63,184 nucleotides of DNA, filler included, from Stramenopiles sp. TOSAG23-3 (GCA_900128585.1; 12 parts of 12 records of this genome joined end to end with filler, not necessarily neighbours in it), one strand, 5' to 3'. Shown: positions 3,781-60,128, numbered from the whole stretch's first letter. Made by a program: numbers and translations. Notes: a model not told the origin generated them from the sequence alone.

Positions 3781-3810
3781 AAAAACAAGAAAAATTGGCT
3801 GTTATTTTAA
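3781..3810 (+). repeat. 3'-intergenic repeat module A
   Basis: AAAAACAAGAAAAATTGGCTGTTATTTTAA, 28 bp after the MFS stop. It matches copies on other contigs. Confidence 0.85.
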
Positions 3811-3839
3811 TAGTAATTAAAATTAAAGAAAAAAGAAGT

Positions 3840-3886
3840 GTGTCAGTTCAAGAACAATATCTCCTCCTATTGCAGATCCTCCCCAA
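3840..3886 (+). repeat. 47-bp dispersed repeat (module E)
   Basis: Exact reverse complement of 34197-34243, which is on another contig. Confidence 0.9.
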
Positions 3887-4135
3887 GTTCTGGTCAAGAT
3901 TCCAATTTATTGGTCTTAGGTACTGCTCAATGAAATAATGATCGGTATTGCGTTTGATCGTTTCGTATCAAAAAAAAAAACAAATTATATATTGAGAATT
4001 AGTTCTTTTATTTACTTCGGTTCTTTAAAAAAAAAGAAGAGAGAGGGAGGAAATTATGTTTTTAATCAATATGCATATAATATATGTTTTATTTTAATTT
4101 CTTTGATATGGCATATTGGCTATTTGTGCTTTTCT

Positions 4136-5287
4136 CTAGTCCGCGGTCAACAGTCTCAGAAGGACGTTCGCAGGGCTCCTCTGCCGGGGCAAGACCTGCT
4201 CTTGCTGGGCGTCGCGCAACGGCGTCTTGGCAGTCCTGTGTTCGTTCGGTTTTCCGGCAGGGGGTACGGGCCTTGCGGTTGTTCCGGCCTCCTGGTTCTC
4301 GTCCATACCCGTCGCCAGCTGCGCGATGCTATTGCCTTTACTAATGCCCCCCGCCCCCATTCGTCCCCCTCTGACAAACGTGCTGCTGCTGTGGCCGTTC
4401 GACGTGAACGCGCGGATGAAGGCGGCGGATTGCCCCTTGGTCTGCGTGAGCCCCCGGACCTGCTCGCTCGAGGACCCGGCCTGGTAGTGCGAAGTCTCAT
4501 GGAGCACTTTGCTGAGCGCCCGGCGTTGCTTCTCCAAACTTTCCCCGTTCTTGCGGCTTCTATCCAGCGCTTCGTATATTTGATCTACCTGTACGACCAG
4601 CTTTTTGATCGAGTCCGTCATCGTCTTGCGAAGTTCGACCTGTTCCTCTACCACTATCGGGGCCTCCTCCTCCTCCAACGTCGATGCGTTCGGCCCCGAC
4701 TCGCCGTCCTCCTCCTCCCCCGCGGCCGCCCTCGCGTACGGCCTGGCCTCCTCGTCCGCTTTTCGCCACGACACTTTCTCCCTTTCGAACTTTTCGATCA
4801 GGGAGCCCAGGACGGCCTCTCGGGCGCGCAAGTGCTCGTTCGCGGGCAAGGACTTCAAGGCCGGGGCGTTCATTTTTCGGCGCGTTTCCATCTGCTGTGC
4901 GGACGCGACCAGGACGCTCCGCGCGCGTGCGGAGAACTCCCCGCAGGCAGTGGACGCCAGGGCGTTGAAAAAGCCGAACGGACCATCGGCCGCGTAGGTC
5001 TTGTTCACAGTGTTTCCTTCATCGCGGACAACGTTTTGAAACAGACGAATCAGGCGCTCGGCGTCTTGCTCGTACGACGTCGGCCCGCCCGGGTGGTTCC
5101 CACGCACCGAGGGGTTGCAAATGGTCCCTGGGTACGCCGGCAAGTCCGGCGACATGGTCTGCCTCGAGATTTTCTTCTTCTGCGGGGGCACGGAATGCGA
5201 AGCGTCGTCGTCATTGTTGCTGCTGCTGGTGGTGCTCGGTTTCTTTCGTTTTTTAAACACAAAGCCATTGACGTTGAAAGTCGCCAT
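4136..5287 (-). CDS. Putative kinetochore DSN1/Mis13-like coiled-coil protein
   Basis: The N-terminal NGFVFKKRKK resembles the DGF-x-F/Y-KR motif of Dsn1 homologs. LPANEHLRAREAVLGSLIEKFEREKVSW resembles the Dsn1 PNPxN...ExxxW coiled coil. Similarity judged by eye. Confidence 0.45.
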   Translation of the reverse strand: MATFNVNGFVFKKRKKPSTTSSSNNDDDASHSVPPQKKKISRQTMSPDLPAYPGTICNPSVRGNHPGGPTSYEQDAERLIRLFQNVVRDEGNTVNKTYAADGPFGFFNALASTACGEFSARARSVLVASAQQMETRRKMNAPALKSLPANEHLRAREAVLGSLIEKFEREKVSWRKADEEARPYARAAAGEEEDGESGPNASTLEEEEAPIVVEEQVELRKTMTDSIKKLVVQVDQIYEALDRSRKNGESLEKQRRALSKVLHETSHYQAGSSSEQVRGLTQTKGQSAAFIRAFTSNGHSSSTFVRGGRMGAGGISKGNSIAQLATGMDENQEAGTTARPVPPAGKPNEHRTAKTPLRDAQQEQVLPRQRSPANVLLRLLTAD

Positions 5288-5739
5288 GGTTCAGTTCAGT
5301 CCAAATTCAAACAAAACTCTGGGGAGGAGGAACAGACAAGAAACACGCGTGGTGGGTGAGAGGGATAAATTCGTGGATGATTGATCAAACACCAAATATA
5401 ATTTTTTCTCTCTCTCTCTCTGCCTCTTTCTCTCTCTCCATAGTAGCGAACGAATAAATGAATTGAATCGATGTTTATTTACTATACCTCCTCTTTTCAA
5501 TTTATCAATATGTAAGCGGCTATAATTATTTCAATTTCAATTTCAATTTTTTTTAATTTCAATTTTTTATTTATTTATAATTATTCCTCCTCTTCTTCTT
5601 CTTCTTCTTTTTTTTTTAAAATTATTATTATTTAATGTTATAATAGGAAGAAGAACAATTGAATACTACAAAACTAACATACAAATAATAAGAAGAGAGA
5701 GTCAAGTCTAAATGGAGTATTTTGTAATCTATAAGCATT

Positions 5740-5907
5740 GAAAGAAAAGAAAAGAAGAAGAAAGAAAAGAAGAAGAATGGAAAAGAAAAGAAAAGAAGAA
5801 GAAAGAAAAGAAGAAGAATGGAAAAGAAAGAAAGAGTCGAAAGAAAGAAAAGAAGAAGAATGGAAAAGAAAGAAAGAGTCGAAAGAAAGAAAAGAAGAAG
5901 AATGGAA

Positions 5908-5939
<32 letters not shown>

Positions 5940-5972
5940 GTCGAAAGAAAGAAAGAAAGAAAGAAAGAAAGT

Positions 5973-6020
<48 letters not shown>

Positions 6021-6021
6021 A
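5740..6021. repeat. Compound (AAAG)n/(GAA)n microsatellite with higher-order GAATGG/GAGTCG interruptions
   Basis: Direct reading. The same GAGTCGAAAG-interrupted repeat occurs in reverse at 36677-36755. Confidence 0.9.
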
Positions 6022-6121
6022 NNNNNNNNNNNNNNNNNNNNNNNNNNNNNNNNNNNNNNNNNNNNTTAATTAATTAANNNNNNNNNNNNNNNNNNNNNNN
6101 NNNNNNNNNNNNNNNNNNNNN
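6022..6121. other. Artificial contig linker N44-TTAATTAATTAA-N44 (first of 11)
   Basis: The same 100-nt spacer, with stops in all six frames, also occurs at 12138-12237, 18250-18349, 24361-24460, 30471-30570, 36577-36676, 42675-42774, 48773-48872, 54870-54969, 60965-61064 and 62075-62174. The contigs between them decrease in length. Confidence 0.98.
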
Positions 6122-10500: not shown

Positions 10501-12137
10501 GGCGGTTAAAGCTCGTTGATTTTCTAGGCAGTGTGGAAGACCAGGAAGGGAGGAAGAAATTGTTCAATACAGCGGATGCAGACAAAGGGGGCTCTGTGGA
10601 TAGAGTGGAAATGGCAAATGCAATCGTGGACATATTTGACCCAAGAACGTTTCAAAATTTGGACGCAAAACGCAACAGCATTGAACGGCAGCCATATATA
10701 CGGCCGGAAAACGACGATTATGGCAGACGGGTTGCGCCATACGCACGTTCTGCCAATGACGATTACTTCAAGGTGATTGCCAATTTTTTTTGTCCGGCTA
10801 AGGCAAAGACACACCCGTTCAACGACCAAGACGACCGGAACCGAAGAGTTAAGTTTAAAACCGAGGGAAAGATTGGGTATGGGTATATTACGAAAGTGAA
10901 CGAGAAAGATCAGAAAGTTTCGGTATGCGCAGATGGAATATCTGGGGCGAGCAATGATTTCATATATAAACTAAAAGGAAATATTGGAAGCGCGCCGGAC
11001 TTGCTGCTGAAAGAAGTTATAACCGTGGCATTCGGCCTGACTGGAATCCCATTCGGGCCTGTTCGATTGTTTCGTGGTTTGTTCCGCAACCTTAAAAAGC
11101 GGCAATACAAAACAACAATATATAAACTTAAACCTGGACAGCACAGTGGAAAGATCTGGTTGCAGAGAACAGCCAAGACCGCAGAATGTACCCTGGTGCG
11201 ACAAGAGACACAAGAGAAAGGGGGAAAGGTGATTGTTGAACTTTTGGACGATGATGCAATCAAAGACGTTAACGAGGCAATGATAGTGCCTAACGTGGAG
11301 GGCAACTTCGTCCGCATGGAGCCAAGGTTGGTCATGATAGACCCGGAAGAAATTGAGGAGCAAGAGAAAAAAATGAAAAAGAAGCGAAAAGGATCCGCGG
11401 CAAGTAAAGATAGTACTAAACCGAAAAAGAATTGTGAGAACAATATTGGAAATTCTCAGCAGCATGACTTTTTACCCTTTATTCATATTCCCGTTCGATA
11501 CGAGAAAGTAAAGGACGAACGCAGCGAAAAAGACAAATATATTGCTCGATATGACGCGGGGCCACGTATTTGGGTCGAAAATTTGAACGAAAACGATTTT
11601 GAGGATCGCATAAAGGACTTTGTGAACACGTATAGCACTGAAGTTGCTCGGTATAAAGATCTGAAGAACATTACTTTCTCACGTTCCCCACGGCACGAAT
11701 TGTGGCAAGAAGATACATTGGACTATGTCTGCAACACCCTGAAGCAGACGGACAAAGTTATGACGGTGCAACCGACGCACTCGATTCCGAGCTGAGCACA
11801 AACATTTTGACAATACTGGCCTCCTTCCAAGCCTCGAACGACTTACGCGACAAAAATGAAAATCAAAAGCTTTGCATGAAGGCAAGCGGCCTGGAAACCG
11901 TAAAATGTCACACAGATGGATGGGGCGTGGACAGCTACAATGAAATTACGAAGTTATGCATGCTTATAGATGGCGTTCGCTTCATTTGCTCGCAATCAAG
12001 CATGGCAGGGCTGAGAGAACTTGAGGTGCTGTGCAATGTTGTGGACCCCGACAAAAACATGGAAGAAGAAGAAGAAGAAGAAGAAGAAGAAGAAGAAGAA
12101 GAAGAAGAAGAAGAAGAAGAAGAAGAAGAAGAAGAAG
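7510..12137 (+). pseudogene. Large signal-peptide, multi-TM protein with EF-hand-like motifs, split by two -1 frameshifts (ORFs 7510-9228, 9216-11795, 11702-12137)
   Basis: Three overlapping same-strand ORFs with continuous coding-like composition. Features include a signal peptide (WWWAVALATLGFLAGPASA), a Cys-rich ectodomain, TM blocks and an EF-hand LFNTADADKGGSVDRVEM. It ends in (GAA)n at the contig end. Confidence 0.55.
8530..8661 (+). repeat. In-frame tandem duplication, 2 x 66 bp
   Basis: MMNTQKNKENGKKGIDEIDFIA followed by MMNTKKNKENGKNGIDEIDFIA. Confidence 0.9.
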
Positions 12138-12237
12138 NNNNNNNNNNNNNNNNNNNNNNNNNNNNNNNNNNNNNNNNNNNNTTAATTAATTAANNNNNNN
12201 NNNNNNNNNNNNNNNNNNNNNNNNNNNNNNNNNNNNN

Positions 12238-15002: not shown

Positions 15003-18000
15003 ATGTTAAAGTATACACATTATTCATTACCAACTTTGCTGATCTTGGTGATCATCGCTGTGGAGGCAAACGGCCACCAGTCTGTACCGACCCTTGAAAC
15101 TTTACCTAATGAAGTAGTTCACCGATTCCTCCGTGGCGTTCCAGAGGGCCCAAGAAAGGCGCGCGGCGCCCCCCAGGTCCCAGCCGGAGCCTTCACGTTT
15201 GTGAAGGCGATAGGACCCTTGCCACGGTCTGTGCCGACGCTTGAAACTACCGAAACGGATCCTTTATCTAACGAAGCCCTGCACCGATTCCCTTATGTCG
15301 CCGCCGAAACAAGCCACGAGCACGACGCAAAAAGGGAAACCAAAATACAACACCGTATCACAGGAAAAGATCGGTGATGTAGGCTACATTGCCAAACAAG
15401 AGGCGCTCCCGATATTGATAAAACAGGTGCAGGCACAAATCGAGACGGGGTTCCAAAAGCAATTTGAAGAGATTCAATTTGCAGACCTCAATGAACAAAC
15501 GAATGGAGCAAACCCGTGTGCTGACTACTTCGATAGCCACGCCTACAAGACTGAAAAAACTACCGCTTCAAACGGTAAATTTGTGAAGACAAGGACCATT
15601 AAGGTCGACCACATAAATGCAACAATAGTTGAGCCGACACAGAATGCACACTCAATTGGTTCAATCCGCGTGGACGCAAAGGCCAGTGTGTCTGCACAAG
15701 GGCACATACTTCTTCGCTGTACGCTGTGGGACAGGACCATCACAAAAAAGGTGTGTGATAGTGATGTCACGTACAACGGTGGCATTGATTTAGTAGCCGA
15801 CGTTGATGTCCAAAACATCAATGGTGTCTTCAGAATCAGCGTCAACCCAACAGCAAAGGTAAAGATGAAAGCATCGACTACGTGCCAAAAAATCGACTTT
15901 TTACATGGTTTAATTTCATATGAAATTGGAAATGCCGTCGCAGACGGCATTACACCAGTAGCAAACGCGTATGTGAAAGAAGCAATCGAAACTTGGTCCC
16001 TTCGACTCAACATGGACCAAGCATACGCAGTGCACAAAGGTCTGGTAGTGTTTTACAGAACAGCCAATATCACGTTTATTCCAAAGCGGCGTATATTGGT
16101 GTCATCATTGCTTTTGATCAATGTGACGAAGGTGAACGAAACTAAAACATTTTCCAGCGCCTTGACACATTCACGACTTCCACCCGACTGGGGAAGAGAA
16201 CGTAGCAATGATACATTGGTCACCCTGGTCATGTCAAATGCTGCGTTAGAAACCCTCTCTGCAGCCGCGAGGTATTCGTACTCGTCTGTGTTTACACACG
16301 AGAGCAATGTTGGGGGGGCGGCAATCGTTACCAGCATCGAGCTGGGGAAAACGACAATACCAGCAAAGCAGCCCAGTCTCAATTTTATATCTATGTTGCA
16401 AAACCAAGTTGGTGTAACATTGCAGTGTAGAACCGTTGGCAACGCTACCAGGCGCATGGACATTCTTCGAGCACAGTTGAACAATGTCAAAGAAGAGATC
16501 ATGCCATTCTTCGTCAACCAGTCAATTCGCCTCAGTTTGTCTAACTTGAGTGTCAAACAAGCTGTCGTTCGTACGAAGCTTGATAAAGTAATTCTGTCGA
16601 AAAGGCAGATAAAGAATTCACTCTCCACCACGTTAAGTGAAACGCGGCAGTCGATTGACAGGCAGTTAAGATCGTCTGCAATTGCGCCGATATCAAAACG
16701 TCTATTACCGAACGGCACTAGACCGGTTCTTACGGTGGGCAAGAGGTTTATTCAGGTCGAGTTAAGCAACAACAAAAACGTTCCCAACGATAAACCGACA
16801 AGGACAATTTTCAGCCCGAAAAACCCGGTCAAGCCGAACGATCCCTCGCGGATACAGTTCGGTGCTGAAATTGCTATTGGTATAGCTAATTTCGCAATGC
16901 TCGTATTTCTTGCGTGGCTGCTTTGGTGTGGTTACAGACACACTGAGCACAAACGAGAGCATAACAACCGGGTGTGGCTACTTGTCTTCTCTGGCATCAC
17001 CTTAGCGTATGTGATAGTGGTATTGGCATTAAATCTAAAACAAAGATGGGCCTTGCCCTTCCTTATACCCTGTTTCGGACTGCTCCTTGTTCAGTTGTTT
17101 GAAATAAAGTTTACGACCGATACTTTCCACGATCATGTGGCCAAAGTTGTTCCATGGTTACTGATCATCCTCATCATTGGGGCGGGTTTGTGCGGTTCAC
17201 AATCGACTCCTGCCAATTCAGTTACTAGTTTTGGTGACTCCAATCCTGAAGTTCAAAAATACCCCGAAAAGGTTCGGGATTTGATCAGCGCATCCAGCTA
17301 CATGTTTATCGTTTTATTTATGCTCCCGGTTGTTTTAACGATACCAAAAATATTAGATGGTTCACAGAATGTCAACGGCCAAGAAAAAAGCAAAAATGCT
17401 TTCTTGAACGAAATGGTGGTTACATTAATGATGAGTGTGCCTGTGATTTTGAGCTTCGGGCTTTTGAAATACCAAGATCAGCAGGGTGGAAAATTCATTT
17501 TCCCATTCGCAGTGATGTCATTTATGTACGTCGTGTTTCTTTTCATATATCGCAAATGTACCGGTGCTTGTGTTAAGTATTCAGCATGTGCTTTGATCGT
17601 CGCGACCGTTGCATGTTTTTCATGGTCATGTCTTGAAAGTCAAGCAGGCGTCGTGGAAATAACGGGAGCTGCAATCGTGGCGTTTGTGTGCCTTTTCATG
17701 CAACAACTGGGCCCAAGCGAAAATTTGACATCTGTTCGTCCAAATACCGTGCCCACAGATGAGAGACGACCACGAGGGGAATTGTCTCCGACTGTGTGCG
17801 AGATGAATCTGTGGCAAAACATACAGGTTTGCTTCCGCAACATTCACGCATGGGCCTTGGAGAAGGATGGGGACGATCCACAAATTCGAAAAATTTTGTG
17901 TAGAAGAATCACATCTTGCTTAAGTGTGGTTCTTTACCTAGTTTTTGACGAGACCTTTCGTATAGTCTCCTCGTTTTATAACCATTCGATATCATGCGAC

Positions 18001-19265: not shown

Positions 19266-19483
19266 ATAATCTAAATAATAATAANNNNNNNNNNNNNNNN
19301 NNNNNNNNNNNNNNNNNNNNNNNNNNNNNNNNNNNNNNNNNNNNNNNNNNNNNNNNNNNNNNNNNNNNAAGTAGTAGTTGTATGGAACGCACTATCTTTA
19401 AGAAATCAAAGGTTTGACGAAAATACAGCATTTGCAGTCGATTCATTGAAAACAGAGCGGAGGGGCACCAGTGTAAATGTGGC

Positions 19484-20920: not shown

Positions 20921-20993
20921 TCATTTTGAGAAATGCGATGATGGGGGTGATCACACACATAAAAGTGAGTTGTGTTTTATTTTTTAATTAAAC

Positions 20994-21045
20994 TATGATA
21001 TCATATGATATGATAAAAGCATCTCAGTTCAGCTATTAAAAGTTA
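20994..21045. repeat. 3'-intergenic palindromic module C (TATCATATGATA) with diverged tail
   Basis: Lies between the convergent sialidase and SCO1 stops. Similar to 38511-38556 and 55601-55612. Confidence 0.65.
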
Positions 21046-21153
21046 GTGTTCTTATGCGCATAATTATGTCCACCATAGCAAATTATTTTTAATTCTCGTG
21101 AAAAAATTACTGGTGCAGAAGATCGAATAGATTAGTTCCAGCACGCGCCTCAT

Positions 21154-21936: not shown

Positions 21937-22613
21937 TGCAGGAATAAAGTAAGAAAAACTGAGCTCTCCGTTGGGTTATAATCTACGATGCAAATCTCCG
22001 TGTGCACTGCGTCAATTTTGCACGTAAGTACACTGTTTATAACTTCAGTTCTGGGTGCTTCTCAACATGAACATCTCTTTCGATTATCATCTCTTCTTAT
22101 AATATATTTATATAAGTGGTGAAAATGAAAAAATACCTAATACCACCAAGGTAAAAAAAGCGTCGTCTCTTCTCTTCGTTCCGTGTGTTGTNNNNNNNNN
22201 NNNNNNNNNNNNNNNNNNNNNNNNNNNNNNNAATGCTGTGTTGTTGTTATAGCTAAATACGAGGAGTATTATTATTTAATAATAATTATTGAATCGATCT
22301 GATCAACACACAGCACACAGCACACAGCACACAGCACAATAATAGTACTAATATGAAAAAATAAATAATAATAATAAAGAAAAAAAGCGAAAAATAGAAA
22401 AGCAGCTATACGGAGCAGTATAAAATATAAAAAAATATATGTATATTATTATTATTATAGATATAGACGAATAACTGAATTTTAATACTACCAGTAATAG
22501 AAGAAAATTGCTAACGACTGTATTAGACGACCATGGTATTGGTCTAAATCTAAATGTGGATGCAGCAATTCATATAAGAGAGTGTTTCAACTTGTGGTGT
22601 ATCATAATTCAGT

Positions 22614-28534: not shown

Positions 28535-28566
28535 TTAAATAATTAAATTTTGTTTTGGTTCTCTTC

Positions 28567-34056: not shown

Positions 34057-34077
34057 TCTCTAACCGCTAAGTACAGT

Positions 34078-34171: not shown

Positions 34172-34196
34172 CGCGTTGATTAATTAACATATATTA

Positions 34197-38453: not shown

Positions 38454-38482
38454 TTTATTAAGATATTTAATTACTTAAATAA

Positions 38483-38578: not shown

Positions 38579-38664
38579 AAAGAACAAAAAGATGTGAGGG
38601 AATGTATTTCACAATTCTTTAATTAGCTAATGTTACTTAAAACGTTCTTATGTACACTTCGTCG

Positions 38665-39931
38665 TCACCCACGAACAGATGGCTGCCTCCTTTCGTTAGA
38701 ATCGTTGATTTCCGAAGCAGCGCGCTTCACGCCCACCACTTGCTTGTTATTTTCGGACAACACCCGTTTCACACCGCGAATCCCACGGGGGGTTACCGCG
38801 TAAGCCACAGTGTTGAGCTTCTGAGATGGAGACTTAACTAGTCGTGCTTGCCGTATCCCCCGACTCCAAAACAACTCGACCCGATTTGTCGCCGCATGCG
38901 ACCAACTTTCTCCTAAGGCAGGAACAAGAACAGCGGATTTTGACTTACCGCCGGCCACGTTCGGTTTGTTAAATACAAACTTGGTGGTCACCTGATTGAC
39001 AACGACGATGGCTAATTTAAAATCTGATGCCATCTTGTTTAAATCCTGCGACATCTTGCTCAGCATTCGACTTCGGTTGGCCATGTCGTCAAACCCGTGC
39101 CGAAAATGAAATGCCACGCTATCAACAACTATCAGCTTTACGTCTCTATGCAAGGAAAGGAACGAGGGGAGGTTCTGGACGGCGGCCAACTGCTCGGCAT
39201 AATCATGGACTCGGAAGACATGTATGTTTTTCAAATACGACTCCACAGAAAAAACGCGCGGATCTAGCGGCTTGGCTGGTGCTTTCGTTGCGGTAATTTG
39301 GGCGTCTAACCTCCTGAGGTGTTCGATTGCCGACGCTGCTAATTCCTCCAACCTCTCTACCATCAAGCTTCCTTCCGTATCTATGTACACACATGACCCC
39401 CCGACGCCTCCCAACCGTTGGGGAACCTGCACATCAACGGCTAGTTGCATGGCCATCTGGGTTTTTCCTACTCCCGGCACCCCACAAAACTCTGTCATCT
39501 GACCAACCGGTACGCCCCCACCGCCAAACAAGGTCTTGTCGATCTCTTCGCAAAACGTAAACACCGATTCTTTTCGAACATTTAACAGGTCCAAAGCGCT
39601 TTTGCCTAATTTATTTAACCCACCGTTCTTGGAACGGGTGGTGGCGGAGTTGTTTTCTTCCTTTTCGGTGTTCATAATCACGTCCAGCGCTTTCTGATGC
39701 GAAATTCCCAAGTCTTCGCTAACTTGAACAGGTGTGGAACTAAGAATGTCGTGGGTTGTTCGGTACCCCGCTGAATTTAGTTTTTCTGTTAAAGGACGAA
39801 CGGAAAGAGTTAGCAAACACACACTCGAGTTTTTAGGGAAGAGATGGGCGTAGAAATGAAAGGTGAAAGGCGCGCTACTTACGCAGGAGGGAGTGCTCGA
39901 AAGGCAGAGTCCCGACGGCGCGGGAAGACAT
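38665..39931 (-). CDS. RAD51C: RAD51 paralog C, two exons (39931-39883, 39785-38665)
   Basis: The spliced N-terminus MSSRAVGTLPFEHSLLQKLNSAGYRT matches RAD51C. Also Walker A GVPGVGKT, YIDTEGS, LIVVDSVAFHFRH and LVPALGESWSH. Confidence 0.92.
39786..39882 (-). other. Spliceosomal intron, 97 nt
   Basis: GTAAGT donor, GCTAAC branch point, pyrimidine tract and ACAG acceptor. Removal restores the frame and supplies an ATG. Confidence 0.88.
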
Positions 39932-40749
39932 CACCCAAAAAAAGAAGTCGTCTAAAAAAACCCCGCAGCGTGAACGACTTCAAGAGTAGAAATGTCGCAA
40001 AAAAAAGAAAACAGATTATAGCGAGCGTATGTCTTTATTTTCGTGCGTGTAGAAAACCATGAAATGCTTTCATAAATTATTTAATCATACAGATTATATA
40101 TTTAATATATACCAAAGTAAACTCGCACTTCATCATGGTTGTTCGGTCATGTGGTTGTTCTTCTCTTTTTCTTTCTCTTTTTTTTTCTTTCTTTTCATTA
40201 TATTATTATTTTTTCTCTTTATTATTATTATTATTTTTTAGTAGCTTCTTCTTTTCTTCTTCTTCTTTTTAATAAAATTAAATATTATAGGAGGAGAGAA
40301 TTAGAAGAAGAAAGATAGAAGATAGATAGTAGAGTTGTGATCGATTTTCATATCGTACTTGTAATATTTACCTATATAAATGCGTATAGTATATAGAGAG
40401 TGAAAATAAACTAAAAAACTATTTTTTTTGAAATAAAAAAACACTTCAATGCTATTCTATGTATTAGTTAACAATCACCATTATGGTGTGTTCCTTCCTA
40501 AAAAAGAAAGAAAGAACAATATAATAAAAAAATTCCATATTTTATTATTATTATATTACTTACACCGTAATATTATATATGTATAATAGATATAATAAAT
40601 AACGGCAATTTTTTTTATACAAAAGCAATGAAAAAAATGTGCAAACATGAAGAGGGTTTGGATTAGAAATCTCGGTCATATAATTCAATTCGTTTAATTT
40701 GATAGAGGTGCAAGGAATTGTTATAGTGTATTTTTGCAGAGAAGAAAAC

Positions 40750-42774: not shown

Positions 42775-42849
<75 letters not shown>

Positions 42850-42850
42850 G
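42775..42850. repeat. (AAAG)n microsatellite at contig end
   Basis: Direct reading. Similar tracts occur at 48736-48772 and 36677-36755. Confidence 0.95.
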
Positions 42851-43334
42851 AAGTATTTTGTATTAATCCATTAAATCTAGCTGTGTATTACATACTATAC
42901 TATGTTATATTATAGAAGTAGAAGAAGAAGAAAGAAGAAGAAGAGAAGGAAAAAAAAAAGTAAAAAAATAATAAAATAAAAAAAAGAAATAAAAGTACAG
43001 TGTATAATATTAGAAGGAATAATAAATAATAATAAATAAAAATAATAATTGCAACCTTTTTACCTTTCCTAACCCTTTCCCCTTTCTTTCAATTAGTAAA
43101 CATTACCTATCGTTTCATTACAATTTATGTTCTATTGATTACGGACATTAATATTACACAAATTGAAAGAGCCAGAAAAGAAAAAAGGAACTTTTTACCC
43201 CCAAGACGAGCGATAGTTCAACGACGACCACACCACACCTTGTACGGGAACGGGATAGTTGTTGCAAAAGGTATTGGGGAGAGCAGTCAGTAGAAGTATA
43301 GTGTAACCGAACGAGCCGGGTAGTTAAAATTATC

Positions 43335-46028: not shown

Positions 46029-46562
46029 TGTGTAAATGTATAAAATGTAAGAAAAGCCACAATCGAAATTGTAATATAAAAAACTTTAAAATTGCTAAAA
46101 AACTTGAGTTAGTAAAATAATATTTATGTCGTTGTTGAAAATCAAACACATCAAAGTTAGACTATACACTTGTATATAGTTATATCAATTAGATGTTTCC
46201 TATTTAATTATTTTTAATGAACGGTGAGGGGAAGAGGCAACAAAAGAAGGCAAATTATTATTAAAAAAAAGAAGAAAAAAAGAAGAAAAAAANNNNNNNN
46301 NNNNNNNNNNNNNNNNNNNNNNNNNNNNNNNNNNNNNNNNNNNNNNNNNNNNNNNNNNNNNNNNNNNNNNNNAAAAATAATGGATTTTTTTGTATGAATA
46401 TAGTATATATTGAATTTTGTTAGATGTAACAAAAGAAGGAAGGAATGGAAAAGATAACATGCTGTTAGCTTTTTTATTTTTGAACGAACAGTTTCGATTG
46501 CTTGCTCTCTCCCCCCCTTTCCCCATATTGTTAAACGCATTACACTTAAAACATACAGAAGA

Positions 46563-48735: not shown

Positions 48736-48771
<36 letters not shown>

Positions 48772-48873
48772 ANNNNNNNNNNNNNNNNNNNNNNNNNNNN
48801 NNNNNNNNNNNNNNNNTTAATTAATTAANNNNNNNNNNNNNNNNNNNNNNNNNNNNNNNNNNNNNNNNNNNNA

Positions 48874-51282: not shown

Positions 51283-52610
51283 AGACCTCCAAACACCCAC
51301 TTGTGCGGTAGTGATAGCAGAGCTTTTTGTCTATGTTAAAAACAAAATAATGGCTCTTAATTTGTCCAGTGTTATCAACAACAAAATTTAAGAAGAAGCG
51401 CACAAACGAAATACAGACACTGTGGATCTTATATTTAAAAAATTGCATTAAAAAGCAAAAAAAAAGCTGGAGCTACAATGTAGTTTTTAGCCTTTCTATC
51501 TTACTCATATGAATTTAATTAATTTTCTATTTTATCAGTTACTATAGTCGCCTAATGTTATAATGTACGTTATTATATATAATAAGGTTTTTTTTTATTA
51601 TAGAAAAAGACGACACGACCTCTTTTTTATTATTATTATATATATTTATACTAGTAAACTATTATATACTGCTGTATTTTTAATAATAATTCGAGCGCTT
51701 CGTTGCCTCGCTCGTTGTATTATAGATTATAGAATGGCAATAAAATAATAAAATAATTTTCCTTGGGTATTTACTACAGTATTTACTATACAGTATTTAA
51801 TATTAAACTGTAAAAATAATACAGTAATAGAGTGTAGCAAAAAAACGTGAGAAAACCATTATATAGGAAATAGGTATTTGTATTATCTCTTAGAGATAAA
51901 GGAAAGCAACATCAAAAACTTGTTTTTCTTCTTACAATTGTAGTGTATAGTATTTTACAAGCACGAAAATAAGCATATTAGATAGGAAACTCTGTTCGAA
52001 AATAAAATCTCAACAAACTAACAGGTAATAGCATTCACAATAAGAAAATAATACTGTAAGAAGACTTTTTTTCTTCTTACTGCTGTCTGCTGTCGGATTT
52101 AAATGACTTCAATAATAATAATACAGTACGGTACTGTATAATAATAAATAAAAAAATAATAATATACAGTAATAATTTTTATTTATTTATTAGACGACTA
52201 CTCCAATACCTTGGTACCATAAAGACAATTATAACAACAGATTATTGTATCAACTACTACTAGCAAATAAAAACAACAAGACGACAAACAACTACGGTAC
52301 CAACAAAAGAAGCAACAAGAAACGAAAAAAACACTGGAAAAAAAAATGTCGCCTCTTTTTTTTCTCTCCTCCTCCTCCTCCTACTCCTCCTTCCTATCTC
52401 CGGTACGTACCGGTACGTACTATACGATTATCAAATTTTATTATTATATAATAATAATCCCAACCACAGCCCACATAAATCGGTAAAACGGTACACACTC
52501 AGAGTAGACACAGTACTGATGTAGAGGCAAATGCAAACGCAACCCACCGGATTAATAATATTAAGATTGTTGGAGGACAGCACGAACGAGTGGTGAAGCA
52601 GTTTTTAACG

Positions 52611-54203
52611 ATGATGTTGTCCCCGCACTCCTCCTCACCTCGTAGCCGTGGCCGTCCTGCGGACAGGAAAAAGAAGAGCGGTGGGAAGGTGATAGTAAAG
52701 TGCGTTGGTTGTTTGTTCGCGTGCATTCCCATCATGGTATTTGCGTTCATCTTATCATATGGCCCCCATTACTTGGAAAGCAGTTTGAAGACGGATCGAA
52801 GTGATGGCAATTTCGCCCAGCCTCCAGCGAGCCACCCACGTGGGCTGTTTAGAAGTATGATGGGCGACTTCAACAGAAAGTTTAAAGGCGCGTTCGGCCG
52901 AAGTGCCCCCCCTGCAGTAGCTAAGTCTTGGTCGTCTTTAATAGCTTCTGAGAGGAGCCAGTTTCTTATTTATGTGTACGATCTGCCAGAAAAATTTAAC
53001 AGGCAAGTCCTACGAGAAAGTTGGCGATGTGGCCATCACATGTTTGCCGCGGAAGTTGCATTTCACAAGTATCTTTTGAAAAGCAACGTACGTACGAAGG
53101 ACCCCTCCAAAGCCACTATGTTTTACATCCCCACGTATACTACGTGCAAGACTACAACGTTTGCAGGAAATGGCCCGGATCCTTGGTTTGGGCGTAACCT
53201 TATGGTGGAGGCAATATCTTGGGTGTCTTCGACGTTTCCTTACTGGAATCGAAGGCAAGGACGAGACCACATTGTTTCGGCGACGCACGACTACGGTGCA
53301 TGTTACGATTATTTGCGCAATTCGGCCCATCGGGCTGGAATCGTGAGTGAGCTGAAAAAATCAATCATACTATCAACTTTTGGAGACACTAAATCCAAAT
53401 GTTTCAATGCCGACCATCATATTACGATTCCTACTTACTTGGCTGTGCCCAGCCTCGGCATTAACTCGAAACGTATGCGAGCAGATTGGAGCAAGGCTGT
53501 TGGGCTCCAGTTACCTTTGGCAGTCGACGACCCAAGCACATTTGATGATACAAAACGAACTCAGGCATGCTTTTTTTGGGGGGCGCTGGAGTGGACCGAT
53601 GCCAACGGCCGCATTGATGAATCGTACAGTCATGGAGTACGCCAAACATTGCGGAAGTTGTATGCAGATGATCCATGGTTTGTCCTTAAGCACGTCACTA
53701 GAGATGGGGATGGAAAGATAGGACTTGATCAGTACGCAGAACATCTGAAAAGATCCGTTTTTTGTTTGGCTCCTGCTGGCTTTGCCCCATGGTCCGCCCG
53801 GATTTACGAAGCAATCCATTACGGCTGCATCCCTGTTATTATCGCCGACACAATAATTCTTCCGTTTGATGACCAACTTCCATGGAGAGAGTTTTCTGTC
53901 AAAATATCAGAAGCCGACTTGAAAGTACCAGGAAAAATGAAAGACATTCTGAAATCAATAACAGCTGTGGAAATCAAGAAAAAACAAAATATTCTGGTTA
54001 ATATAGCTCGCGTGGCTTTAATGTATCAATTTCCCAGCTACAGTGAAAATTCGGAACTTGCCCCGTTTGGCCGTGCAGAAATCGGTGGGAGTGCCTTTGA
54101 CTACATAATTCGAGGTCTAGAAATTAAAGCCGGCAAACGAAGGGTTACGAAAGAAAGTGCCAAGATTCGACAAAAGTCTAGGGTTTCTGGTGGGTGGCAG
54201 TAA
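52611..54203 (+). CDS. Exostosin-family glycosyltransferase (GT47)
   Basis: TM anchor, IYVYDLP..FN, RTKDP, PYWNR..GRDH, THDYG and SVFCLAPAG..PWS.RIYEA..YGCIPVII. Confidence 0.93.
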   Translation: MMLSPHSSSPRSRGRPADRKKKSGGKVIVKCVGCLFACIPIMVFAFILSYGPHYLESSLKTDRSDGNFAQPPASHPRGLFRSMMGDFNRKFKGAFGRSAPPAVAKSWSSLIASERSQFLIYVYDLPEKFNRQVLRESWRCGHHMFAAEVAFHKYLLKSNVRTKDPSKATMFYIPTYTTCKTTTFAGNGPDPWFGRNLMVEAISWVSSTFPYWNRRQGRDHIVSATHDYGACYDYLRNSAHRAGIVSELKKSIILSTFGDTKSKCFNADHHITIPTYLAVPSLGINSKRMRADWSKAVGLQLPLAVDDPSTFDDTKRTQACFFWGALEWTDANGRIDESYSHGVRQTLRKLYADDPWFVLKHVTRDGDGKIGLDQYAEHLKRSVFCLAPAGFAPWSARIYEAIHYGCIPVIIADTIILPFDDQLPWREFSVKISEADLKVPGKMKDILKSITAVEIKKKQNILVNIARVALMYQFPSYSENSELAPFGRAEIGGSAFDYIIRGLEIKAGKRRVTKESAKIRQKSRVSGGWQ

Positions 54204-54343
54204 ACATTTTTGTGTAAAGATTGTGAAGGGGAATGGCTCGCTCGTTTGGAGACACAATGTTGAAGGAAAATTAAAGGATAAGGACCGCTCTAAAGATTTT
54301 AAAACAGAGAGAAAAACCAAATAATAAATGCACATTTTCATTT

Positions 54344-54411
54344 TTAAAAACAAGAAAATTGGCTGTTATTTAATAAGATACTTAAATAACAGCCAATTTT
54401 CTTGTTTTTAA
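54344..54411. repeat. Perfect 30-bp inverted repeat (module A) with 8-nt loop
   Basis: TTAAAAACAAGAAAATTGGCTGTTATTTAA-TAAGATAC-TTAAATAACAGCCAATTTTCTTGTTTTTAA. Followed by B-like copies (54462-54550) and module D (54576-54589). Confidence 0.95.
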
Positions 54412-54791
54412 TAAAAATATGGCATGTTGTATATTATATTTAATCTTAACGCATAATAAAATGAGAGTCTTAAAAGCATACTATTATATATTTATTTATT
54501 TTTAATCTCTTAAAAGCATATACTAACTACTATATAATTTGTTTTTTTTTAATTTTTAGTAAAATCTCGGGAGCAGAGATAAGTTCGCAGTATATGAAGA
54601 CGATAAATTTCATAAATAGACAAACTGAAAATTGGTTTTTTTTCTTCTTCTTCTTTTAAAACAAAAAACTGGTGTTATTGTATCCCAATTCACAAATGAC
54701 AATCTCTTGACCGATTTACAAGGCAGACAACGAGCACCTCTAAAACATTTACGCCGCTGCTTTGAAAATCACACAAGGAATGAGTCATCTA

Positions 54792-54869
54792 TGAGTGAGA
54801 CACCGGACGAGGAAGTTGATTATGGGTCATTTGGAAGCATTGCTAATCCATCTACCGATTCAGATCATG
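54792..54869 (+). CDS. Possible 5' end of a gene cut by the contig end
   Basis: An ATG-initiated MSETPDEEVDYGSFG... frame is open to the contig end. Confidence 0.3.
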
Positions 54870-55459: not shown

Positions 55460-55711
55460 TAGTGGGCTTCAAAAGAAGAAAATTTTGTCCCATGCGAAAA
55501 TCGCATTAGTGTGTGCTAAGATTGAAGATTGTCCCGTAAACAAACCTAATTTGAGATGTATTTATTGTACCTCGCCGGTTTGAAATTATAAATGATTTCA
55601 TATCATATGATAAAGGATCATCCAAAGCGTACTTTACTATCATATACATAATATTTTTTTTCAAACGATCATGTACGGGGGAGTATCTTCTTTAAATTGT
55701 GCTTTTGCCCC

Positions 55712-56968
55712 TCACTGGTGGTTCACTTTAACGTGGGCACGGTGCGCAAACAGTTTAAGGTTCAACAAACCGTCCATGTGCACGTTTGTGATTGCCTCGT
55801 CCTTTTCTTTCTGGCTCACCGTCAACTTTTCGTACGCAGGAGCTGCCCTGGCGCCTTCGTTAGTTTCACAAAGCCAAGCAAACGCCAATGCCTCGTCCGC
55901 CGTTGGCCTCGTTAACGGGTCCACCCGTAGGAGTCCCTGTACGCACTCTTTCAAGGTCCTGTTTTCTTCAAAAATCGGCAAATTGTAGTTCACCTTCCCG
56001 ACCGCAATGGTGTCGAACAAATCCATGATCGATTTCGCACCTGCAAACGGCGGCTGGCCGGCGACCATCATATACAAAGTTATGCCGGCCGCCCAAATGT
56101 CATGCTTCTTGGCGTGAAACTTTTCGGTGCCGGTGCACATTTCCGGGGACATGAAATGGGGAGTCCCAGCGGTGTTGGAGACGAAATCATCCTGGGAGTT
56201 GTTCCGTCCGCCATCGAACAGTTGGGACACTCCAAAGTCGGTCAGCTTCATAATCCCTTCCCGATCGACCAGCATGTTCCCCGGTTTCACATCACGGTGC
56301 GCGATGCCCTGGAAATGCAGGTAGGACAAGGCCTTCAACAGCTGTCTCGTGTACGATTTTGCTTGGGGTAAGGCGAGCGGTTTTACCTTTTCAACGGAGT
56401 CCTCGATGACTGTGCCGCCGGGCATAAGCTCTGCAACCAAGTAGCAATGGTCGTGCTCGCTGTCGTCTATAATTTCTACCAAGTTGACCAAGTTCGGGTG
56501 TACCAACTTCTTCCATATGGCCATTTCGCCTTGAAGAAGCTTCAGGGCGTTGGAAAAACGCCCCAGTCTCTTGCGTGCCAGCCGCTTTTTGTTCAAGACT
56601 TTGATGGCGTACTTTAACGTCTTGTCGCCCAGGAGGGATTGCGAGGGTATGTGACAGCTGTAGACTATTGCAAACCCACCCTTTCCGAGGACTTCGTCGA
56701 TCACGTACTGGTTTACTTTCTTCAGTCTGTTCGACTTTGGAGAGTGGGACTCTTTGACTGCGTTGGTGGTAATTGTATTTTGCTTCACGTAAATTGACGG
56801 CGGGGGCGTCCTCGGCTTTTTTCCAGACTCCAAATAGTCTATTAGGAACGAGATGACATCATCTGGCCGGTGAAGTACTACCTCCCGCATAAGATCTTGC
56901 AATGTTTGCTTGACGTTGTGCTCCTCGTAATAAGCCCCGAGCCTTGAGTCGCTGTTCTTGCCCGACAT
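55712..56968 (-). CDS. CAMKK-like Ser/Thr kinase with N-terminal RIIa/Dpy-30-type dimerization-docking domain
   Basis: YYEEHNV...LQDLMREVVLHRPDDVISFLIDYL, KKVNQY, GKGGFA, HRDVKPGN, DFGVS and AGTPHFMSPE. Confidence 0.88.
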   Translation of the reverse strand: MSGKNSDSRLGAYYEEHNVKQTLQDLMREVVLHRPDDVISFLIDYLESGKKPRTPPPSIYVKQNTITTNAVKESHSPKSNRLKKVNQYVIDEVLGKGGFAIVYSCHIPSQSLLGDKTLKYAIKVLNKKRLARKRLGRFSNALKLLQGEMAIWKKLVHPNLVNLVEIIDDSEHDHCYLVAELMPGGTVIEDSVEKVKPLALPQAKSYTRQLLKALSYLHFQGIAHRDVKPGNMLVDREGIMKLTDFGVSQLFDGGRNNSQDDFVSNTAGTPHFMSPEMCTGTEKFHAKKHDIWAAGITLYMMVAGQPPFAGAKSIMDLFDTIAVGKVNYNLPIFEENRTLKECVQGLLRVDPLTRPTADEALAFAWLCETNEGARAAPAYEKLTVSQKEKDEAITNVHMDGLLNLKLFAHRAHVKVNHQ

Positions 56969-57917
56969 TTCAAAACCACGAAAAGGGGCGTGGCTCTTGG
57001 ACGGGCCCGTGCGGTGAACGGAAACGTTACCTCAAAAGGAGTGAACCCCACTGCCGAGAATAAAGGAAAGAAGCTGTGATTCAAGGAAATATCCAAGTAA
57101 TCAAGAAAATGTCTAATGGTTCTGTCCTACAATGTTCATCGTTTGTTAATGATCAATTATTAATAACAAACGACAAACAAACTGAAGAGAGGAGAAATAT
57201 TTTATTTATACGAGGCCTCCTTCTCCTCGTCCGTCTAGTGGTCCAGTGGATTATAATACCTTGGTGGTACCGTCCAACTTCTTTTGAAACGAAGTATTAT
57301 TATTCTTCTAGGTACTACTACTACGACGTCCAGTATTAAATACCAGTACAACTATTGGAACTACCAACGACGTAAATAAAAAAACTTGGGTAGATTAATA
57401 AAATAATTTGATTGAAGAAATTAATATTTATTTAATAATTTAAATAATATAAATAATATTTTTTCTTTCTCGCTCCTCCCTCCTCCTCCTTCCTTCCTTC
57501 CTTCCTTCTTCTCTTCTTCTTCTCCTTCCTTCCTTCCTTCTTCTCTTCTTCTTCTCTCTGCTGGTGTTTAAATTAGGACTAATATTAAATTTTTTTGTGT
57601 TGTGGTGTTTTTTTTGTTGAAAGAAGAAGATAGAATGTCTCTCGCTGTGTCTATTATATTAGAAAATGTTGACAATAATTTTTTCAGCAACAACAAAAAG
57701 GCAGCAGTGCTTCTTCTTTCCTTTCAGAAGAAGAAGAAGAAAAAAAGAAGAGAAGAAGAAGGAAAAAAAGAAGAAGAAGAGAAAAGAGAAGGAAGAAAAA
57801 AAAAAGAAGAAGATGAAATTCAGTCTCTCTTCTTCTCTCTTACCGGTTGACAGGGATATTAATACATTTTTAGAGAAGTTTCCTGTGGAATGAACATATT
57901 AGAGATATGCTGTGGGA

Positions 57918-59303
57918 ATGAGCGCGGTCCCAAAGAATCGTTGTGCGTCCGCGGCAAACGGTGGTGAACTTGGGGGGGGAGGTTCGGTGTGCGCCCAGAA
58001 CCAGGCGGTCGGTGAGATAGATGCGTCTGTGCAATCGTCAGAATGGTACTTGGAAGGAATTGTTGCTGCAAAAAGATGGCGTGGCAAGAAGCTGTGCTTT
58101 GCAAACGTTTTGCTATTAGATGAAAGCAGCATGCCCTCTAACGTACTGAACGATATTTCCTACGTTGAGGCCGGCCCATCGTACATAAACAAGGTTCTGC
58201 CGTTTGTATCTGACGGCAAAAATTACTCGAGTGGCGTGCCCCCAATACGCAGTAAGATCATGGCCAACAAGGTGGTCGAACTGATATTACAAAAGGAACT
58301 GATAGAAAATGGGCAAGAATGTATGCCTTCGAAAGCAGACTTGAGGCTTGGCAACCACGTTGTTTTTCGTTGCAGTGCCTGTTTCGACCTGTCTGATTCG
58401 CCAAACCAGCCCCATCAAGGAGAGCCAAAGCGGATCGGTATTGTTCTCGGGTGCGCGGTCAAAGGCCGCTTTCAGTCGCTGGGCTGGCCGCCACGGACTT
58501 CCATCAACCTTGGAAGCAAAAAAGACCTGCCGCAGCCAGACGAGAATGCTCCTCTGTGCGTTAGATGGGTGCTGCAGCAGTGCACTGCACGCCGCTGCCC
58601 CTTTCGACATTACATTATTCAGGACAAAGACGAAGGAATGCAAGAAAAGTTGCTGGCTCACCGGGCCAATTCTCACGACCGTGAGGCAATGTGGGCGGCC
58701 AAGCTTGCCGCGCCGCTTTCGGTTATTGGTGCCATCCCGCTGGTCCAGAGTGCTGTGCTTCAGCCCCACGCTGCTCGGGCAGGCGTGTTTGTTAACTTTT
58801 TGTTGAGTACGTTTGGAAAAGATGTCCTCTCAAGTGGCAGTGGGGTTGTGGATGTAGCGGGCGGCAGTGGGGACGTTGCTCATTATCTCTGGGTGCGAAA
58901 TGGTGTTCCAACGACCACAGTCGACCCAGTGCCACGTCGCAACACGAGCAAACGACGAAAAAAGGAGATGCAAAGGATGGGAAGGGCCCCAAGTGCATAC
59001 ATTGCAGAATATTTCAACACCAACTTCAACCCAAGCTTGCTGGAATCTGCGTCTGCGTTTGTAGGCATGCACCCGGACGAAGCCACGGAAGATATTGTGG
59101 ACGCTGCGCTAAAGTTCAACAAACCATTCGCCGTCATACCATGTTGCGTCTTTTCAGAGCTAAAGCCAGGGAGGAAACTTCATGGAAATATTGACGTTTC
59201 GCGTACGGACCAGTTTTGTCTATATTTGGCGCAAAAGGATGCTCGGATAAAGGCCAAGTACTTGCCCTTCGAAGGAAGGAACATTGTGGTTTATTTAAAA
59301 TAA
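57918..59303 (+). CDS. CCCH zinc finger plus SAM-dependent methyltransferase-like protein
   Basis: LCVRW...C...CPFRH, VVDVAGGSG and VGMHPDEATE..VD.AL...KPFAVIPCCVF. Confidence 0.75.
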   Translation: MSAVPKNRCASAANGGELGGGGSVCAQNQAVGEIDASVQSSEWYLEGIVAAKRWRGKKLCFANVLLLDESSMPSNVLNDISYVEAGPSYINKVLPFVSDGKNYSSGVPPIRSKIMANKVVELILQKELIENGQECMPSKADLRLGNHVVFRCSACFDLSDSPNQPHQGEPKRIGIVLGCAVKGRFQSLGWPPRTSINLGSKKDLPQPDENAPLCVRWVLQQCTARRCPFRHYIIQDKDEGMQEKLLAHRANSHDREAMWAAKLAAPLSVIGAIPLVQSAVLQPHAARAGVFVNFLLSTFGKDVLSSGSGVVDVAGGSGDVAHYLWVRNGVPTTTVDPVPRRNTSKRRKKEMQRMGRAPSAYIAEYFNTNFNPSLLESASAFVGMHPDEATEDIVDAALKFNKPFAVIPCCVFSELKPGRKLHGNIDVSRTDQFCLYLAQKDARIKAKYLPFEGRNIVVYLK

Positions 59304-60128
59304 GCTGCGTCGTCGTCTCGTGCATGTTGAATGACGAAAATTATTATGAAATATATTTTTAATAAATTTATCAAAAACAAATTAAATTTATATATTATTG
59401 TATTAGTCTTCTATCACAACTTACTCGGATTATGAGATAAGTTCGCAATATTAATACCAATATAATTTAACTAGTCGTCGAGTTAATTTTATTAAAATAA
59501 ACATATAATACTGGTTGGGTTAAGGACTGCGGATTAGTTGTTGGGAAACTTTTAACATAATATTAATAATATAAAAAAAACACAATTTTCTTGTTTTTTA
59601 ATATCATATTAATAAATACTGTAACTCAGTGCGCCAATGAGGATTTGATTGAATGAGAGGACTACTATTCTACTTACTATTTTTAATTATTTAAAAATAT
59701 TTTATAATAGTAGGCCGACTAATATAATATAATAATAGTGGGGAGAATTATTAGACGACTAATAATATTTTATTACACGCACCACCGCTTCTTCTTTTTT
59801 TTTCTTCTATTCATTCTTCCTCCTATTTCCATATAATACTACTATTAATAATACTGTCTGAAATCTTGTTTTGTTGATGAAGAAGAAGAAGAAGGAGGAC
59901 GACACACTTTTTTTTTCCTCTTCTTCATTCATTTTTTGCATTTTGGATATCCTACTATAATTTTTAAATGTAGATGACTAAATTATAGAAAGATAAAATA
60001 CATGTGCACGTACCGAATATTCTACATCAACACAAAAACGTCAGTAGAAGAAGAAGAGCAAATAGAGAGAGGTGACTTTTCTTATTTCGTGGAGACCATA
60101 GTTTTGTTTCCCTTTGTTCTTTTGCGTT

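Follow-up and report, generated by a model that had tools for sequence, protein, structure and literature searches.

Short repeats lying outside genes are known from bacteria, where the REP/BIME, Correia and BOX families are small, extragenic, present in high copy number and able to form hairpins. The SIDER elements of Leishmania are longer, about 0.5 kb, and clearly derived from retroposon sequence. SIDERs are reported to be degenerate retroposons populating the 3′ untranslated regions (UTRs) of that genome (PMC2323293). For yeast, two reports describe inverted repeats enriched at poly(A) sites (PMC6420913) and bidirectional termination zones centred on UAUAUA (bioRxiv 10.1101/2022.11.02.514956). 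In Blastocystis, an 8-nt GU-rich downstream element, TGTTTGTT, lies exactly four nt past the poly(A) site in about 96% of 2,419 genes (PMC4159000). Here we report a family of short repeated units, modules A, B and probably C, located behind genes in a 63,184-base stretch of the genome of Stramenopiles sp. TOSAG23-3 (GCA_900128585.1; hereafter the window). These units form hairpins when paired, have defined edges and adjoin a long open reading frame (ORF) family in two independent places.

The original prediction had labelled these repeats REP/BIME-like, and as an analogy the label is apt: the bacterial elements, too, are units of tens of bases, extragenic, located behind genes or between convergent genes, clustered in alternating orientation and hairpin-forming. 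It does not extend beyond analogy, however, since the host genome is nuclear and eukaryotic, a single A unit is no palindrome and does not fold alone, and the linked ORF carries reverse transcriptase (RT)-like rather than HUH motifs. Neither a HUH (RAYT) nor a DDE transposase, for which a search had been proposed, was present among the 44 Pfam-scanned ORFs of these 63 kb of genome. As with the SIDERs, we are dealing with a large family of short, non-autonomous units behind genes, related to or associated with a retroelement, that may influence mRNA fate. Unlike the SIDERs, these units measure only 25–45 nt, their edges are discrete, and their sequence does not continue into that of the ORF element.

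Other comparisons are also partial. The composites formed by the modules resemble miniature inverted-repeat transposable elements (MITEs) and foldback elements in being multi-copy, near-identical, AT-rich, hairpin-forming, 68–150 bp long and TTAA-bounded, but they have no consistent terminal inverted repeats and no demonstrable target-site duplication, and the units also occur singly. They differ from short interspersed nuclear elements (SINEs) and from truncated tails of long ones (LINEs) by the absence of a Pol III head, by two discrete left edges and by the lack of an Rfam match. With the yeast zones they have in common palindromic AT-rich elements between convergent genes, one of which could serve both strands, and module C and the palindrome excess described below fit this pattern; the yeast elements, in contrast, are short, degenerate and present at nearly all genes, whereas modules A and B are long, near-identical and found at a minority of genes. 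Blastocystis is likewise a stramenopile with a strongly conserved gene-end sequence, and modules A (in reverse) and B end in TTG(G)TTTTT; here, however, most genes lack this tail motif downstream, and its sense and antisense counts are equal.

Sharp-edged units in the spacers behind genes

The window joins 12 separate contigs, ten of 5,995–6,021 nt and two of 1,010 nt, arranged in descending size with N44-TTAATTAATTAA-N44 spacers between them (for example 6022–6121 and 12138–12237), so the module copies do occur on unlinked contigs, as had been proposed. Module A is the best defined. Its 30-mer matches the window four times at three mismatches or fewer, and not one of 100 shuffles gave any match. 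The 14-mer core, AAAATTGGCTGTTA, has eight exact occurrences, and its overlapping 12-mers are the most repeated non-low-complexity words of the window. A profile search returned nine strong copies at E<1e-4 and a partial copy at 59583 (E=0.04), the profile being self-trained on the copies and not an independent test; the A-like candidates at 54658, 40596 and 51338 fell short of significance in it. All ten positions originally given for module A were recovered.

In an all-against-all comparison of 15 spacers, each with a 3′ side, the A copies, which lie on five different contigs, were 93–100% identical over 24–44 nt, with the similarity breaking off sharply at the edges. Alignment of each copy to the one present in a public contig, L003 (described below), showed module A to be a discrete unit, about 45 nt long in its full form and about 24 nt in a short one. 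The right edge is common to all copies, one left edge is common to five full copies and another to two short copies. Random 5′ truncation was considered and ruled out by these two discrete left edges, which are not a spread. Variation is mostly confined to the A-run on one side, and the 14-nt core is unchanged in eight of the nine copies. The copies lying outside inverted pairs are:

3780–3808, plus strand: module A, E=1.9e-6, 27 nt past the stop of the ATG22-like gene 1246–3753, in the convergent spacer 3754–4135
28071–28100, plus strand: module A, variant AAAAGCAAG, GGCTATTA, E=6.4e-7
28149–28175, plus strand: short form of module A, with a B hairpin directly after it
28506–28533, plus strand: module A; the stop of the cNMP-binding gene 28567–30171 (minus strand) is about 34 nt away
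59583–59600, minus strand: partial module A of 18 nt, E=0.04, 280 nt past the stop of 57918–59303, with a C-like ATATCATAT next to it

Module B is about 37 nt long and both its edges are fairly constant. The profile search gave five matches at E<1e-3 on three contigs (28195 minus, 32454 minus, 32560 plus, 54462 plus and 54506 plus) and, with the partial copies at 28176 and 3975, all six places predicted for this module were accounted for; B had no match in any of 100 shuffles. The palindrome C was found in the three exact copies predicted, a number reached in none of 100 shuffles, and a 17-mer is common to the copies at 20994 and 38512. Partial or decayed copies of the modules lie at 59583, 3975, 28176, 54658 and 51338, the last two not being significant. 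A possible relationship between A (in reverse) and B was also examined: their alignment score of 27 was matched by 17 of 500 shuffles, and by 30 of 500 in the opposite orientation. Because this score is unconvincing against shuffles, the idea of a bipartite signal shared by A and B was dropped. The B and C copies and the composites are:

3975–3991, minus strand: partial module B, tail only, 17–20 nt exact to other B copies, E=12 alone, with an exact 20-mer in common with 54531–54550
28176–28229, no strand: B hairpin, formed from the partial head of one B and a complete inverted copy at 28195–28229 (minus), 18 pairs including 2 G-U, −22.7 kcal/mol, z −7.4
32453–32596, no strand: inverted B, A (32515–32542, minus), T16 and B (32560–32595, plus), 33–34 bp inverted arms, z −9.95, in the convergent spacer 32237–32700
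38480–38579, no strand: A (38480–38507, minus), C (38511–38528) and A (38553–38579, plus, short form), in the convergent spacer 38454–38664
54344–54412, no strand: perfect 30-bp inverted A pair with an 8-nt loop, −37.8 kcal/mol, z −12.8 (for 54344–54411)
54462–54547, plus strand: two tandem B-like units, 54462–54499 (E=1.6e-6) and 54506–54547 (E=4.5e-4)
20994–21011, no strand: palindrome C, in the convergent spacer 20921–21153
55601–55612, no strand: palindrome C, in the convergent spacer 55460–55711, between a rhaM-like gene and a kinase gene

A fourth module, D, had been proposed as well and should be abandoned. Only two exact 14-mers exist, none lies near 32423 at three mismatches or fewer, and at that tolerance the window holds six matches against 5.4 expected; since about 20 repeated 14-mers arise by chance in each Markov-shuffled window, D is not above chance. 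The two copies are:

54576–54589, plus strand: module D copy 1, at chance level
59434–59447, plus strand: module D copy 2, at chance level

A single spacer can hold up to three A and two or three B units in mixed order and orientation. The succession A then B recurs three times and the loci otherwise differ in both respects, which agrees with the shuffling first described. A pairs occur both head-to-head (54344) and tail-to-tail (38480), B pairs likewise occur in both geometries, and half of the A copies are single. Inverted module pairs at four loci give hairpins of 18–34 bp; in the A-C-A composite the folded segment 38483–38578 has inverted arms of 22–23 bp (z −8.25). The description of the modules as palindromic holds for C and for inverted A or B pairs but fails for single A units, which do not fold (z −0.56 and −0.84). 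Inverted repeats of at least 20 bp are present in 3 of 35 spacers, the three with module pairs, and a general excess of long inverted repeats in convergent spacers was on this ground rejected. TTAA bounds both the 54344–54412 and the 32453–32596 composites; note that TTAA is itself palindromic and common in these spacers. The assembly breaks within module clusters, at the N gap 28273–28335 and at one contig end.

One further repeat is unrelated to A or B: a 46-nt exact inverted repeat, 3841–3886 and 34197–34242, with sharp edges and an A/GAAG-rich run before each copy. The first copy is in a convergent spacer, 30 nt after module A; the second is in a divergent spacer, beside an N gap. A 14-nt piece of it is also found at 3504, within a coding region. 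This exact pair shows that short exact units are spread in this genome.

Positions relative to genes were read from our own gene models, based on a codon-usage log-likelihood trained on Pfam-supported ORFs together with Pfam matches. About 70% of the genome is coding, and the noncoding DNA of the window amounts to 17,625 nt, divided as follows:

Convergent spacers: 2,659 nt
Tandem spacers: 4,954 nt
Divergent spacers: 4,216 nt
Contig-end 5′ flanks: 5,036 nt
Contig-end 3′ flanks: 760 nt

Spacer 3754–4135 was counted as convergent because the real gene there is 4136–5287 on the minus strand, the long plus-strand ORF 3938–5359 being spurious. Two models, 27416–27832 and 25811–26782, are weak; without the gene 27416–27832, spacer 27833–28566 becomes the 3′ part of a tandem spacer and its modules remain downstream of the stop at 28567.

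With these models, all A, B and C copies are in spacers that follow a stop codon, as the original prediction held for this sample, and both the 5 divergent spacers and the 10 contig-end 5′ flanks are free of them; no A copy is found in the 3 real contig-end 3′ flanks. Of the 8 convergent spacers, 4 contain the exact-core A; of the 11 tandem spacers, 1 does, namely 54204–54682, whose "downstream gene" is the truncated ORF fragment described below; the partial copy at 59583 lies in a second tandem spacer. A test of convergent against 5′-only spacers, counted in the window, gave 4 of 8 against 0 of 15 for A (Fisher p=0.008) and 6 of 8 against 0 of 15 for any of A, B or C (p=0.0003), and by base pairs the chance of at least 4 of 5 A loci falling in convergent spacers is 0.0023. 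These tests involve few loci and our own gene models, and they support the claim in this sample and not genome-wide. Perfect palindromes of at least 12 nt are also denser in spacers with a 3′ side than in 5′-only spacers (2.0/kb against 0.65/kb; 17 against 6, p=0.009), an excess that may be partly compositional, with promoter sides being full of purine runs.

Downstream sequence is visible for roughly 27 gene ends; about 10 of these have a module and about two thirds carry none. Four A copies start 27–34 nt past a stop (3780, 28506 and 38480) or 86 nt past one (38553), and spacer 38454–38664 provides one same-sense A copy for each of its genes. With respect to the nearest gene, the copies are of mixed orientation: about 3 lie closer to the gene on which they would act, 3 lie closer to the opposite gene, and for the others there is no difference. 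As a candidate universal downstream element, the TTG(G)TTTTT tail common to A (in reverse) and B was rejected, as it occurs downstream of stops 13 times in sense and 13 times in antisense and is missing from most genes.

A linked reading-frame family and the surrounding contigs

A 19-mer scan of a collection of bacterial and archaeal genomes found five loci, and only L003 has the extended A unit; the other four (L001, L002, L004 and L005) are chance matches in bacterial coding-like sequence that lack it. L003 is a 4.1-kb contig filed under a bacterial metagenome-assembled genome (MAG), although eukaryote-like. Its A unit is 100% identical over 32 nt to window positions 54379–54410, has the same edges as in the host spacers, and follows the stop of P0121, a long ORF with an open end (L003 1–1909), at a distance of 74–81 nt, its intact left edge being 74 nt past the ORF end.

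The same ORF family is present in the window, at the end of the richest module cluster, where a truncated copy starts 3 nt past a degenerate A-like stretch:

54658–54679, plus strand: degenerate A-like stretch directly before the ORF fragment, E=2.2, not significant alone
54682–54869, plus strand: 5′-truncated C-terminal end of the ORF family, cut by the contig end, with stops just upstream

This fragment corresponds to the last 61–63 residues of the family, with 82.5% identity to P0123 over 63 aa (E=5e-26), 54% to P0121, and 79% DNA identity to L003. No in-frame start precedes the homologous part, and the sole in-frame Met lies inside it. Just before the fragment, in 54623–54679, A-like half sites ACTGAAAATTGG and AAAACAAAAAACTGGTGTTATT stand on either side of a T8(CTT)4T run; they may represent an A unit that was split, or duplicated, around an insertion of the tail only, neither half being significant alone.

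The ORF family is present in multiple copies: its clusters at 90% identity comprise 116, 83 and 11 members, most of which come from contigs 0.6–5.5 kb long, against 5 members in the cluster of the window's adenylosuccinate lyase (ADSL). The longest member, P0193, has 1,689 aa; others are P0121–P0129, P0207 and P0217, and a search for longer forms returned only known members. In one member the sequence is joined to the end of a DUF229-like host protein, and one is named in its source as a protein of a MAST-4 stramenopile; like L003, the contigs of P0193 and P0217 bear bacterial MAG labels. In P0193 the motif order is RPIAIGE / D.KNAFN / QGDP / FADD / LGIPI, and the conserved C-terminal block of the family has a Cys/His cluster followed by HN..ED, KRPR, GNQADG and WDVHF. 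We tentatively take these motifs to be those of a divergent RT with a zinc knuckle and an endonuclease behind it, the arrangement of site-specific non-long-terminal-repeat (non-LTR) elements. The family has no match in Pfam, NCBIfam, PADLOC or PDB, by sequence or by profile, and the Atlas gave only a weak lead, zf-RVT in 17% of one cluster with a score of 0.84. An AlphaFold model of P0126 from a 7-row alignment (pLDDT 39.2, pTM 0.28) was too poor for the fold to be read.

L003 also ends in a foldback (2063–2432) with 153-nt arms that are 92% complementary. A relative of one arm, with about 72–78% identity, is found at window positions 40340–40450, in a divergent spacer and without a partner arm.

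The window's ORFs are long and uninterrupted (intron-poor) and their products are ordinary eukaryotic proteins, including, by Pfam scan, a MYST acetyltransferase, a Rad51-like protein, NTF2, Mad3/BUB1, SCO1, an exostosin, a protein kinase and ADSL. The nearest named relatives of this ADSL are from stramenopiles (oomycetes and diatoms), at about 62–65% identity; other sequences reach 74–79%. Six extra N gaps are internal to contigs (2557–2581, 19285–19368, 22192–22231, 28273–28335, 34293–34450 and 46293–46372). That at 2557–2581, in the ATG22-like coding region, has a direct repeat of about 32 nt on either side and is probably a tandem repeat collapsed in assembly. The ends of contig 5 (24461–24544 and 30387–30470) are mutually reverse complementary over about 84 nt, and the first 118 nt of contig 3 (12238–12355) recur inverted 2.9 kb inside it, at 15174–15291; both look like amplification or assembly chimeras. 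Most contig ends carry (GAAA)n, (GAA)n or (CTT)n microsatellites (5723–6021, 12053–12137, 36677–36760, 42775–42857, 48736–48772 and 1–130), some interspersed with a GAGTCGAAAG unit (5827–5950 and 36697–36730). An 18-nt perfect palindrome containing GC, GTACGTACCGGTACGTAC, lies in 52400–52420, about 190 nt upstream of the exostosin gene start.

Mobile repeats or gene-end signals: possible readings

Our preferred but tentative reading is that the units are interspersed repeats of a copy-and-paste family, which is restricted to 3′ spacers and has a link to the long-ORF element. A, B and probably C would then be one family of short units, in which A has an invariant core of 23 nt, and their number would have grown through copy-and-paste or conversion. 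Their confinement to AT-rich spacers behind genes would mean either that this process aims there or that insertions elsewhere are lost from a compact genome. Repeated insertion into the same spacers in both orientations would generate the shuffled clusters, and two facing units would produce a hairpin or cruciform of 18–34 bp. The ORF family, read from its motifs as a putative retroelement that also lands behind genes, could be the source of mobility or could use the A unit as a landing site. The data show the repeat family itself, its unit edges, its restriction to 3′ spacers in this sample, the hairpins and the two independent places where it adjoins the ORF family; mobility, the ORF family as its cause and any effect on transcript ends are what we infer from this arrangement.

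The original prediction offered two alternatives, a 3′-end code acting in cis and a non-autonomous element family that inserts, or persists, at 3′ ends only. Several results favour the second, and the first, as a general code, is disfavoured. The repeat reading is preferred because the copies are near-identical and sharp-edged, several can share one spacer and some are decayed or partial; because only about a third of gene ends carry modules; and because a multi-copy ORF family adjoins modules in two independent places. The second, unrelated 46-nt exact repeat and the assembly breaks at clusters point in the same direction.

A number of observations weigh against this reading. Six full A units whose edges were read by eye showed no target-site duplication, the A and B pairs have no fixed terminal-inverted-repeat geometry, many units are single, and the units are far shorter than usual MITEs or SINEs. 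A tRNA scan of the window gave 0 genes, with no tRNA-like or other Pol III head, and the discrete A edges are not those of simple dead-on-arrival LINE tails. In L003 the A unit, having the same edges as elsewhere, is not visibly part of the ORF's own 3′ UTR, as judged from one element 3′ end. The ORF family lacks a database match, and its reading as RT draws on motif order and the weak Atlas lead. The perfect conservation of the core between L003 and the window, beside ORF DNA that is 79% identical, would also fit selection on a functional site. Finally, the sample is small: 63 kb and 5–6 independent loci.

The last but one of these points belongs equally to the main alternative, which we consider possible but less likely, that A, B and C are host elements acting in cis at the 3′ ends of a subset of genes, as bidirectional termination or cleavage-polyadenylation signals or as sites for roadblock factors. 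Inverted pairs would then arise as each convergent gene needs the signal on its own strand. The strict 3′ confinement (0 of 15 5′-only spacers, against 4 of 8 convergent ones for A and 6 of 8 for any module), the copies 27–34 or 86 nt past stops, the same-sense copy given to each gene in 38454–38664 and the threefold denser palindromes of 3′-side spacers all agree with it, as does the yeast parallel of inverted repeats at poly(A) sites (PMC6420913) and bidirectional termination zones (bioRxiv 10.1101/2022.11.02.514956). It has to contend, however, with the two thirds of gene ends in the window that have no module, the equal sense and antisense counts of TTG(G)TTTTT and its absence behind most genes, the mixed orientation and distance to the nearest gene, and the presence of several copies in one spacer. 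Moreover, near-identity over 30–45 nt exceeds what a protein site or a poly(A) signal usually needs, and inverted repeats of at least 20 bp in only 3 of 35 spacers mean that hairpins are no general gene-end feature. A general gene-end signal is therefore unlikely. An exapted or host role for the repeats nevertheless fits the strict 3′ confinement, the copies 27–34 nt from stops, the symmetry of 38454–38664 and the conserved core. A combined version, in which A and B are mobile gene-end cassettes that spread themselves, provide bidirectional termination or 3′-end processing for convergent pairs and serve in addition as a retroelement landing pad, a eukaryotic counterpart of REP and Correia, seems to us improbable.

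Site-specific retroelements use multi-copy conserved sequences as targets, and the A unit, whatever its origin, might be the insertion target of the long-ORF element, which would be compatible with either the repeat or the host reading. The ORF of L003 stops 74 nt before an intact left A edge, the window's truncated copy lies 3 nt past an A-like stretch that breaks off inside the unit, and both junctions are what an insertion separating the two arms of an inverted A pair like 54344–54412 would leave; the C-terminal block, which resembles the zinc knuckle plus restriction-like endonuclease of site-specific non-LTR elements, would agree with this. We nonetheless consider such a landing pad unlikely: there are only two junctions, one of which depends on an A-like match without significance (E=2.2), the databases support neither the endonuclease nor the RT reading and the structure model (pLDDT 39) was too poor to help, and a common tolerance for 3′ spacers could account for both features. 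The strong hairpins at four loci also invite comparison with microRNA (miRNA)- or siRNA-like precursors between convergent genes, and the 68-nt perfect hairpin 54344–54411 resembles many miRNA precursor models below threshold, the best at 37.6 against a 56-bit gathering score. But at least 10 unrelated families match it, on both strands and all sub-threshold, which indicates a generic hairpin shape; the whole window has no Rfam match at gathering score, half of the A copies are single and unfolded, and permissive Rfam scans of 27800–38700 and 54200–54700 gave generic sub-threshold hairpin matches and one ALIL match (E=0.16). Small-RNA loci are thus very unlikely. AT-rich spacers, the artefact-like inverted contig ends and the chance level of module D could suggest that the repeats are due to chance, low complexity, or assembly or amplification, an explanation that is barely credible for the set as a whole and refuted for A, B and C by the shuffles (0 of 100 with any A or B match) and by the copy in L003, an independent public contig; the copies also lie inside contigs with unique flanks.

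A known kind in a new combination

Literature searches for comparable eukaryotic elements gave analogies only and no description. In agreement with the original remark that no described family was recognised, the module strings were not found in the literature searched, which returned only primer or sequence matches judged to be unrelated, and the main text of a 2026 single-cell genomics preprint (10.64898/2026.04.17.719054) makes no mention of motifs, palindromes, transposition or termination. The kind of element is already known, namely short extragenic repeats behind genes, possibly linked to retroelements, as in REP/BIME and SIDER. What is new is the combination of very short discrete units, their arrangement as shuffled inverted pairs between convergent eukaryotic genes, and the link to an unclassified long-ORF element.

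In practice, both the units and the ORF family break assemblies, and the contigs that carry them are mis-binned into bacterial MAGs. If the density seen here (nine strong A copies in 63 kb) is typical, the genome would contain thousands of units, and a large proportion of the gene ends of an abundant, uncultured lineage of marine protists would be marked by them. They would then offer a handle on how streamlined eukaryotic genomes stop convergent transcription, on the recruitment of short mobile repeats as terminators outside bacteria, and on the way in which a retroelement locates safe insertion sites when about 70% of the genome is coding.

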